From Promethearchaeota archaeon (lineage in GTDB: Archaea; Asgardarchaeota; Lokiarchaeia; Sigyniarchaeales; SOKP01), in the NCBI GenBank assembly GCA_016839765.1, contig JAEOTP010000043.1, forward strand, positions 1 to 64,000: a stretch of DNA of 64,000 nt, in the 5' to 3' direction. The first letter of the stretch is position 1; each line of letters opens with the position of its first letter. A program made the position numbers and the translations under genes. Under the pieces are notes generated by a model. It made no database searches and was not told where the DNA came from. It was given only the letters and a program-made list of their open reading frames with translations. Below, piece by piece: positions 31,006-32,802 of the stretch.

Positions 31006-32230
31006 TTAGAAATAATAAACGTTAATTTGTTCTGGAATGGTTAATTCTTCTTCTTTATTTTTACATGCTATGAATTTGATTTTCATATTCATTACCAGTG
31101 TTAGAAGACGTTTAGACAGAATTCCATCAATAATTATAAATTCAGTTTGGTTGTATTTTGATATCTCCTCAAATAATTTGCCTGCAGTTAAATCAAATAA
31201 TTTCTCAAGTTTATTATTAAATCCGATACTATGGCCTGATGGAATTGTCTTTAATGCTTGTGTTATGATTGATTGATTTTTCACTTTAAGTTTTCTTAGT
31301 AACTTACTAAGCTTTGTTTCTGTAACTTTTTTCTCCATAACAGAAGATGTTTCTCCTGGTTTTTCTAAAGATTCTGTTGTAGATCTCTTATTCTGGAGAG
31401 ATTTTATCATCTGTTTCCTGGTTAATTCTTCTACTTCATATCCATCAGGAGCGTGAGCAATAAAGTCTACATTAATTAACTGCATTAACTCTTTTGTAAT
31501 TAATTCTCCGCCCCTATCTCCATCGCAGAATATTGTTACTCTCTCTTTTTTTTTCGCTAAATCTATAACTGATTTAGGAATATGGGTTCCTTGGACGGCT
31601 ACAGTATTTTTTATCCCTATTCTAAGTAGGTTTAAAACATCAGCTCGCCCCTCGACAATGATTAAATCATCATCACTTTCAACGTTTGGTCCAGCTGGTA
31701 ATCCTTCAGGACCCCATTTTATAATTTCACCAAGTTTAATATCTGTATCTATTTTTTCTTCAATTTCACTAGGTTCAAGAGATTTTTGATCCCATTCTTT
31801 TAATAATTCTGCTGCACGTTCAATGATTTTTTTGCGCTTTCTTTCCCTTACATCTCTAATCTCAATGAGACGGATTTTAGCTTCACAAGGTCCAACACGG
31901 GTAACAGTTTCAATAGTTGCCGCCAATAATGCAGTCTCCTTTCTAGTTAAAGAAGATGGAATTTTAATAATACCAGTAGAAACACCCTCCTTAGATTCGT
32001 TTTCTACTTCAATTCTTCCGATTCGTCCTGACTTTTGAAGATCTCTTAAATCGAGATCTAAAAGGAGACCCTCAGTTTAGCCGATTTAGCCGAAATGGCT
32101 TTAAAATTTACCTTTGACCAAATATGGCGCCAACTATATCGCTTTTTTCAACCACTCCCTTAATTTCAAATTTTGTTTCAATAATATATTTTGTAGTAAA
32201 ATCTACCTGATTATTTGTAATCTTGATCAC
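31006..32230 (-). CDS. dnaG: Archaeal DnaG (TOPRIM; exosome-associated), two exons: 32230..32114 joined to 32076..31006 (395 aa)
   Basis: Exon 1: (V)IKITNNQVDFTTKYIIETKFEIKGVVEKSDIVGAIFGQ. Exon 2: TEGLLLDLDLRDLQKSGRIGRIEV..., then IIVEGRADV and DGDRGG TOPRIM motifs. Confidence 0.9.
32077..32113 (-). other. 37-nt BHB-type intron in the dnaG mRNA
   Basis: Insert AGGTAAATTTTAAAGCCATTTCGGCTAAATCGGCTAA carries an in-frame TAA and shifts the frame. GGUC/GGCU 4-bp helix with a 3-nt AAA 3' of each strand. Confidence 0.8.
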
Positions 32231-32802
32231 TTCCGTATTACTTAATTAAAATTTATTTCTTTATTTTTATGAGATAATTATAATCTTAAATGATTTCAAA
32301 CATTTTAAATTGAAAATATGATTTTTAGTTCAGTTTTTTTTGTGTATTTTAATTTTAAATGCTTTTAAGTCATCAATAAATAGATGATCAATTTAAATAA
32401 ATAATTCTTTCCATTTATTTTTTGCTGAATAAAAAGGCAAACAAAATTGTTTGCAGCCATAACATCTCCATAGGATATTTATTTTTAAAGAAAATATTTA
32501 ATAGATATTGATGAGTCTTTATTGGAATAATATGCTATTAAGAAGGTTTTCAAATTTAAATAAAAAGAAAATCAAATTCAAATTGAGTACTAATATAGGG
32601 CGATTTTATTTTTACTTTGAAAAAGAAAATAATGAAAATTCTTCTGTTAATGGTAAAATCATATTTTTCCCTAAAGATGTCGAAATTACTCAACAGTTAT
32701 AATATAATTTGAAATGATTAAAATTCAAATAATTATATTATTATAATAGAACTTAATTCTCTTCTATGTTTTAATTCATCTTAAGATTATCAAGTTAATA
32801 CA

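Follow-up and report, generated by a model that had tools for sequence, protein, structure and literature searches.

The nearest described precedent for an intron that proteins remove from an archaeal pre-mRNA is the bulge-helix-bulge (BHB) intron of cbf5 in Crenarchaeota (Desulfurococcales and Sulfolobales; Watanabe 2002, Yoshinari 2006, Yokobori 2009 = PMC2738675). That intron is short, lies inside the coding sequence, adopts a relaxed BHB form and is cut by a hetero-oligomeric splicing endonuclease (EndA). Here we analyzed a window of 64,000 nucleotides (the whole stretch of DNA from position 1 to 64,000 of contig JAEOTP010000043.1, assembly GCA_016839765.1) from a Promethearchaeota archaeon of the order Sigyniarchaeales, in which the dnaG gene, on the minus strand, is cut in two by 37 nt at 32113..32077. 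Comparison of this locus with its relatives argues that the 37 nt are very probably a protein-spliced BHB intron of the dnaG pre-mRNA. In all the features just listed, and in the predicted cut positions, the dnaG insert resembles the cbf5 intron; it also appears to be ancestral to its clade, to have been lost precisely in some lineages and to have been overlooked or misannotated, as the cbf5 intron was. It differs in the host gene, where it falls in the conserved N-terminal RNA-binding domain, in its Asgard lineage, in the much larger number of alleles, in the presence of a second insertion site 21 nt away, and in the company of other essential genes that are split likewise. Unlike cbf5 splicing, dnaG splicing is a prediction from sequence.

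A second group of comparable elements is formed by the non-canonical tRNA introns of the HBh′ and hBH types in TACK and Asgard archaea (Marck and Grosjean 2003; PMC5829648; PMC4090602), which share with the dnaG insert their geometry, their size range and an (αβ)2-type EndA with an L1 loop. In contrast to these, the dnaG substrate is an mRNA, and there is no tRNA body to hold the motif. Half of the dnaG central helix is built from codons, so that the helix is constrained by the protein sequence. A further parallel is the unconventional cytoplasmic splicing of HAC1 and XBP1 mRNA, in which the protein endonuclease Ire1 cuts two stem-loop sites and a tRNA-type ligase (e.g. RtcB) rejoins the exons, which restores or changes the reading frame. 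Ire1 and its motif differ from those considered here, and HAC1/XBP1 splicing is a regulated stress switch. Fujishima and colleagues reportedly described transposition of tRNA introns in Thermoproteales, where related BHB introns at different positions imply mobility; the dnaG sites, in contrast, lie 21 nt apart in one protein gene, and in one carrier the event coincides with an apparent recombination breakpoint.

No report of introns in dnaG or in any Asgard mRNA was found in the literature searched, in which subscription journals were poorly covered. For pre-mRNA substrates, the cbf5 work is still the sole citation in reviews and structural papers as late as 2025, and a preprint of 2026 on the tRNA introns of Asgard archaea leaves protein genes aside. 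An earlier reading of the window, made without database searches (hereafter the sequence-only reading), had stated that archaeal coding-sequence introns are known mainly from cbf5, and the literature searched indeed reports cbf5 only. The mechanism is of a known kind, that of the cbf5-type pre-mRNA BHB intron; the gene and the lineage are new. If dnaG is indeed spliced, it stands beside cbf5 among protein genes dependent on the tRNA-splicing machinery, and does so in Asgard archaea, the closest known relatives of eukaryotes.

The genome assembly analyzed comprises 3.3 Mb, is 96% complete and has a G+C content of 29.7%. Exon 1 of dnaG (32114..32230, minus strand) has a GTG start at 32230 and consists of 39 codons that end in ...SDIVGAIFGQ, the start of the conserved N-terminal domain. 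Exon 2 (31006..32076, minus strand) starts with TEGLLLDLDLR, contains the Toprim domain and comprises 356 codons and a stop codon. Between them, the putative BHB-type intron (32077..32113, minus strand; 37 nt) starts with AGG TAA, so that its second codon is an in-frame TAA (32108..32110, minus strand) at which translation of the unspliced RNA would stop after 41 residues; its length of 36+1 nt adds a +1 frame shift. When the insert was removed in silico, the invariant protein sequence GAIFGQ/TEGLL was restored. The match of exon 2 to NCBIfam NF003108 ('DNA primase DnaG'), an archaeal equivalog, starts at profile position 27, and a full-length intronless relative aligns with the same profile from position 1. 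Taken together, the profile matches of exon 2 and of the intronless relative indicate that the 37 nt between the two frames interrupt one gene. This is the only dnaG match in the genome, and the gene has no further lesion. Coordinates and translation confirm the sequence-only reading on this point, in that the conserved DnaG motif is split between Q and T by 37 nt that bring in both a TAA and a frame shift. Neither blastn-short nor motif searches of the genome revealed another copy of the intron, indicating that it is not a repeated element there. A promoter and terminator scan gave nothing relevant.

The bulge-helix-bulge motif at the dnaG junction

In the RNA sense, the sequence around the insert reads GGUC-AAA-GGU...AUC-GGCU-AAA-CUGAG. 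The 5′ strand of the central helix H, GGUC (32116..32119; all elements are on the minus strand), consists of the Gly codon and the C of the Gln codon, and pairs with the 3′ strand GGCU (32079..32082) through G-U, G-C, U-G and C-G pairs. The 5′ bulge AAA (32113..32115) contains a predicted cut between 32114 and 32113, and the 3′ bulge AAA (32076..32078), whose last A opens the Thr codon, contains the other between 32077 and 32076. Within the intron, GGU (32110..32112; GAU in most relatives) pairs with AUC (32083..32085) through G-C, G-U and U-A pairs to form the helix h′, and an inner hairpin, AGCC-AUUUC-GGCU, occupies 32088..32100. Because C-AAA and U-AAA flank the two ends of the insert, four placements of its boundaries yield an identical product, of which 32077-32113 is the one that fits cutting after bulge nucleotide 2. 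The position and length of the insert were fixed independently of the motif, by protein alignment; a geometry with four of four H pairs and three of three h′ pairs is found at 0.175% of random (position, length) pairs in this genome. The 3′ end of the intron also carries a tandem 9-nt duplication, CGGCTAAAT / CGGCTAAAC (window 32076-32092), which is specific to the window's clade.

For comparison, 147 dnaG loci were assembled, drawn from within the genus and family, from further families of the order and from two metagenome contigs, and removal of duplicates left 98 distinct parsed junctions, all from Promethearchaeota. An insert of 29-43 nt lies exactly at Q39/T40 in 43 of the distinct junctions, 51 have no insert and four have an insert elsewhere; seven more loci, unparsed by the junction pattern, are likewise continuous. 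The protein sequence on either side, GAIFGQ/TEGLL, is invariant while synonymous sites are saturated, and intronless relatives read ...GAIFGQTEGLL... without a break.

Motif positions in these alleles were anchored on the splice junction and not on an alignment. The central helix then consists of two 4-nt segments that stop two bases short of the 3′ end of exon 1 and of the intron, respectively, and it is fully paired (4/4) in all 43 distinct alleles as exon GGNC with intron GNCU. The third pair varies (CG in 24 alleles, AU in 8, UG in 6, GC in 3 and GU in 2), and the intron base tracks the synonymous wobble base of the Gly codon: GGU and GGC are accompanied by intron G, GGA and GGG by intron U, and GGG in two lineages by intron C. 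The sequence-only reading had proposed, as a check, to look among relatives for same-position inserts with a covarying central helix, and these 43 alleles supply them. When RNAalifold was run on an unconstrained MAFFT alignment of 35 alleles, it predicted the central helix and nothing else. The three pairs of h′ hold in 43, 41 and 36 of the 43 alleles, with one compensatory change from U-A to C-G. In the inner hairpin, 95% of cells are paired across 27 alleles of type A, and the closing pair varies among AU, GU and UA. For the full structure (central helix, 3-bp intron helix and inner hairpin), 96.2% of cells are paired, compared with 10-48% in a control in which the partners were slid by 1-3 columns, and none of 500 shuffles reached the observed covariation score.

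The two 3-nt bulges that flank the central helix vary in a way that bears on the cut position. The 5′ bulge is AAA, AAU, AGA or AAG, and the 3′ bulge is AAA in 40 of the 43 alleles. The AAU and AAG forms of the 5′ bulge rule out cutting after nucleotide 3, which would cost the Thr, and the AUA 3′ bulge of one allele (L042) rules out cutting after nucleotide 1, which would turn Gln into His. Only a cut after bulge nucleotide 2 therefore keeps GQTEG in the natural variants, and this is the cut, giving GGU CAA ACU GAG, that the sequence-only reading had proposed. The cut position in the cbf5 intron is stated likewise, between the second and third bulge residues (PMC2738675).

In the mechanism that we propose, GGUC at the end of exon 1 would pair with GGCU near the 3′ end of the intron to form a 4-bp central helix, an AAA bulge would follow each strand, and the GGU:AUC helix together with the inner hairpin would close the 5′ bulge. 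Heteromeric EndA would cut after the second nucleotide of each bulge, and RtcB would join the exons to give GGU CAA ACU GAG (G-Q-T-E) and would probably circularize the excised intron. The expected spliced junction would be ...TTTGGTCAA joined to ACTGAGGGT..., the circular-intron junction ...ATCGGCTAA joined to AGGTAAATT, and the junction peptide SDIVGAIFGQTEGLLLDLDLR. RNA that escaped splicing would yield only the 41-residue peptide, the second intron codon being TAA.

Two EndA paralogues (PF01974; L031:1453-2058 and L032:1423-2040, both on the minus strand) and one RtcB are encoded in the genome. The paralogue of 201 aa has Tyr, His and Lys at what we take to be the spacing of the catalytic triad of Methanocaldococcus jannaschii EndA, and the paralogue of 205 aa lacks a His at this spacing, presumably the catalytic position. 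The nearest match of the 201-aa paralogue is PDB 3p1z_B (E = 3e-37), the catalytic subunit of the Aeropyrum pernix heterotetramer. Asgard EndA has been reported to be of the (αβ)2 type, with an L1 loop that confers a broad substrate range (PMC5829648), and the two paralogues fit this type. The set of dnaG alleles allows the substrate rules of Asgard EndA to be tested directly. The claim of the sequence-only reading that an Asgard mRNA is spliced by the tRNA machinery thus has the motif, its covariation and the EndA and RtcB genes on its side; cleavage and ligation of the dnaG RNA themselves are what we infer from them, and no spliced junction was present in metagenome contigs.

This last result is one of several that weigh against a protein-spliced intron. 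Two scans of metagenome contigs revealed no spliced junction for this clade: a clade-specific junction pattern had 0 matches, and a degenerate pattern matched two long DNA contigs, both of which carry an intron at the second insertion site described below. A search of 5.8 billion proteins likewise returned no full-length product with >82% identity. As to the structure, the strict hBHBh′ form is not attained, since U/C opposite C is unpaired and no in-register exon-exon helix forms at the 3′ bulge; exon-exon pairing (UUY with GAR, from Phe and Glu codons) is possible only with a 2-nt offset. Because the exon-exon helix is not in register, the motif represents the relaxed HBh′ form, as the sequence-only reading had described it, and both pairings it had named, GGUC:GGCU and GGU:AUC, were found. 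Single-sequence folding of the window fragment gave z = -0.64, no better than shuffles. The tandem CGGCUAAAU/CGGCUAAAC repeat in the window offers a competing 8-bp helix with exon 1, and the minimum-energy fold of the window pairs exon 1 with the first copy of the 9-nt tandem repeat and not as a BHB. Across alleles, the central helix is part of the minimum-energy fold in only 2 of 35, and its pairing probability, which ranges from 0 to 1.0 and is often high with 8-nt flanks, is mostly <0.1 with 18-nt flanks. Conservation across alleles is seen for the central helix and not for the competing ones. Finally, the covariation stems from few independent events. Only three well-supported contrasts are available for intron presence against the Gly wobble base; in all three phylogenetically independent contrasts the association of the intron with a pyrimidine wobble base is in the expected direction, which is too few for significance in a sign test.

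A relaxed BHB that is not the predicted minimum-energy fold could also be expected if the insert were removed from RNA by some other structure-specific nuclease and a ligase, or by an unknown ribozyme activity, instead of EndA and RtcB. We consider this improbable. The conserved and covarying elements are exactly those that EndA needs, namely a 4-bp helix, two 3-nt bulges and cuts after nucleotide 2, and a broad-specificity EndA and RtcB are both encoded. With respect to a ribozyme, an Rfam scan of 31800-32400 found no match at E up to 5, and group I and group II introns, whose ribozyme cores run to hundreds of nucleotides, are far larger than inserts of 29-43 nt.

Coding constraint on both sides of the insert

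The reading frames of the inserts are informative about how the two exons could be expressed. Insert lengths modulo 3 cover all three classes (22, 12 and 3 of 37 alleles). In each of the 37 introns examined, one of the first three codons in the frame of exon 1 is a stop, a further stop lies in the frame of exon 2, and TAA is the last codon before exon 2 in 35 of the 37. With stops in every needed frame and with all length classes represented, neither a frame shift nor read-through can bridge the insert. The early stops partly follow from the motif itself (U + AA), and selection to cut short the translation of unspliced RNA could also play a part. If transcription and translation are coupled, an early stop in the intron raises the question of how splicing outpaces the ribosome.

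Over the 32 codons before the junction, the median ratio of nonsynonymous to synonymous substitution rates (dN/dS) is 0.084 among carriers of the intron and 0.076 among alleles that lack it. That the ratio in exon 1 is as low in carriers as in intronless alleles indicates that exon 1 is still translated in frame with exon 2. Purifying selection acts on both exons.

These data bear on the possibility that the RNA is not spliced at all and that the locus makes two products, the 41-residue peptide and a DnaG shortened at the N-terminus that starts within exon 2. Such an arrangement is quite unlikely, even though gene callers give truncated proteins of 306-347 aa and a TTG at 31926 opens a frame of 306 aa. 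The earliest possible start in the exon-2 frame is 50 codons in, and its use would discard residues that are nearly invariant across the family. In nearly all alleles a TAA stands immediately before exon 2. Nor would two separate products give any reason for an exon-1 dN/dS of 0.08 or for a helix that covaries with the intron, and the intronless relatives make one continuous protein. The truncated calls themselves had been foreseen by the sequence-only reading, and public calls for close relatives are indeed 306-347 aa long: every protein match with >80% identity is a truncated gene call of this size (P0002-P0006), including an NCBI entry named DNA primase DnaG. Gene-calling pipelines miss exon 1 wherever the intron is present. 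If the gene is spliced, the proteomes and marker-gene sets of these organisms are systematically wrong at such sites.

Recoding by the ribosome, either by a bypass (hop) or by a programmed frame shift, is very improbable. In T4 gene 60, where the ribosome bypasses part of the message, a stop codon lies just after the take-off site, and a stop likewise lies just after the putative take-off region of dnaG. However, there is no matching landing codon, as CAA/CAG is absent from the 3′ end of the insert and the GGC there precedes UAA, and the insert lengths fall in all three frame classes with the needed frames closed by stops. A decaying pseudogene, or an artefact of assembly or sequencing, is what a stop and a frame-shifting insert look like in a single genome, but this explanation has next to no probability given that the insert occurs in dozens of independent assemblies, that both exons are under purifying selection, and that the only dnaG copy has no other lesion.

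Other split genes, a second insertion site and intron history

A protein-spliced intron in dnaG would not stand alone in this genome. The single full-length match to EF-1alpha (contig C57:103509-104831, L135) has two in-frame stops, and a 33-nt insert in its P-loop, GHIDHG/KST, shows a helix AUGG:CCAU, 3-nt bulges and an intron helix GAU:AUC. In purA (contig C6:33789-35081, L140), a 30-nt insert in GD/EGKGK has a helix GGGG:CCCU and the same BHB geometry as in dnaG. Each of these inserts sits in the most conserved motif of the protein. Other split genes with BHB motifs, for which the sequence-only reading had advised a search of the genome, are represented by these two. Its further suggestion that the composition of the exosome is coupled to endonuclease activity found no supporting evidence; because EF-1alpha and purA carry the same kind of insert, a rationale specific to dnaG is not needed. 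A genome-wide scan for BHB geometry joining two long open frames gave 304 clusters, compared with 273-312 in controls with slid partners, and requiring longer h or h′ helices likewise produced no clear excess. Although it picks up dnaG, the scan cannot serve as an intron count in so A+T-rich a genome.

ARAGORN placed introns in 17 of the 31 tRNA calls of the genome, several of them at unusual positions. Some calls had odd identities (Pyl, SeC, Stop). Many of the tRNA genes are probably interrupted, and detection of the set is probably incomplete.

On the DnaG tree, whose root is not established, the intron is patchily distributed, with twelve state changes, of which at least 5-7 are forced by well-supported branches. 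Short type-B alleles (29-32 nt, with GUCU-type 3′ strands) are found in basal lineages of the family in seven of eight cases. The eighth is a 29-nt intron in another family (G026, the only genome of that family), which shares the length and the AUCUC loop and has a compensated stem. The rest of the tree is occupied, in between intronless alleles, by the long form found in the window, whose inner hairpin is GCC-N5-GGC. The presence of the intron in basal lineages and in a second family suggests an old intron that would have undergone repeated precise losses.

Just upstream of the Q/T site, the G+C-rich Gly-Ala codon pair GGC GCC (GTT GGC GCC at 32126-32134 in the window) occurs in 12 of the 43 carriers at this site, in three of the four second-site carriers and in none of the 51 intronless alleles, counts that are uncorrected for relatedness; the pair could be a structural element or a hitch-hiking tract.

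The second site lies 21 nt upstream of the Q/T site, where an insert of 30-31 nt stands between Ile32 and Val33. It is carried by four distinct alleles at nine loci, from three genera plus two metagenome contigs (L148:1-1365 in G143; L099; L141:4730-4770; L142; L112/L039 in G128; L079/L044 in G095; and L153 in G069). The four carriers all lack the Q/T intron, no allele has both, and they fall in four separate well-supported clades. The insert again has BHB geometry, with AGAU paired to AUCU, GUCU or GUUU, 3-nt bulges and an intron stem, and its removal restores SDI/VGA exactly. Its interior is like that of the long Q/T intron, with GUC-AAUUC-GAC in place of GCC-AAUUC-GGC, followed by AAUUGUCUAA in place of AAUCGGCUAA.

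One second-site carrier, L112, was compared with its intronless sister L100. From ~60 nt downstream of the intron, the two are 94-100% identical in almost every 50-nt window, whereas around and 5′ of the intron identity is 65-88%, and the sequence upstream of the gene is unalignable. This drop in identity beside the intron, together with intronless proteins that match L112 at 99% identity in exon 2 but differ at the N-terminus, points to acquisition of an intron-bearing 5′ end by L112, apparently through recombination with foreign DNA. The same full-length proteins had been considered as candidates for spliced products and were rejected, their different N-terminus assigning them to intronless alleles.

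Considering dnaG together with EF-1alpha and purA, which would depend on the same splicing, we tentatively suggest that BHB mini-introns in protein genes of Lokiarchaeia are not isolated relics but form a dynamic, mobile population that undergoes gain, loss and relocation, a view for and against which we see nearly equal grounds. If it is true, the closest archaeal relatives of eukaryotes splice mRNAs routinely. The 43 same-site alleles, the second site and the precise losses provide rich data on how a protein-spliced intron is gained, retained, moved and lost.

Both states of the gene are represented in one metagenome-assembled genome (G023), which holds two dnaG copies, one with a 38-nt intron (C91:4436-5491, L018) and one continuous (C40:2655-3710). 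This genome, with a contamination estimate of 6%, may be a mixed bin.

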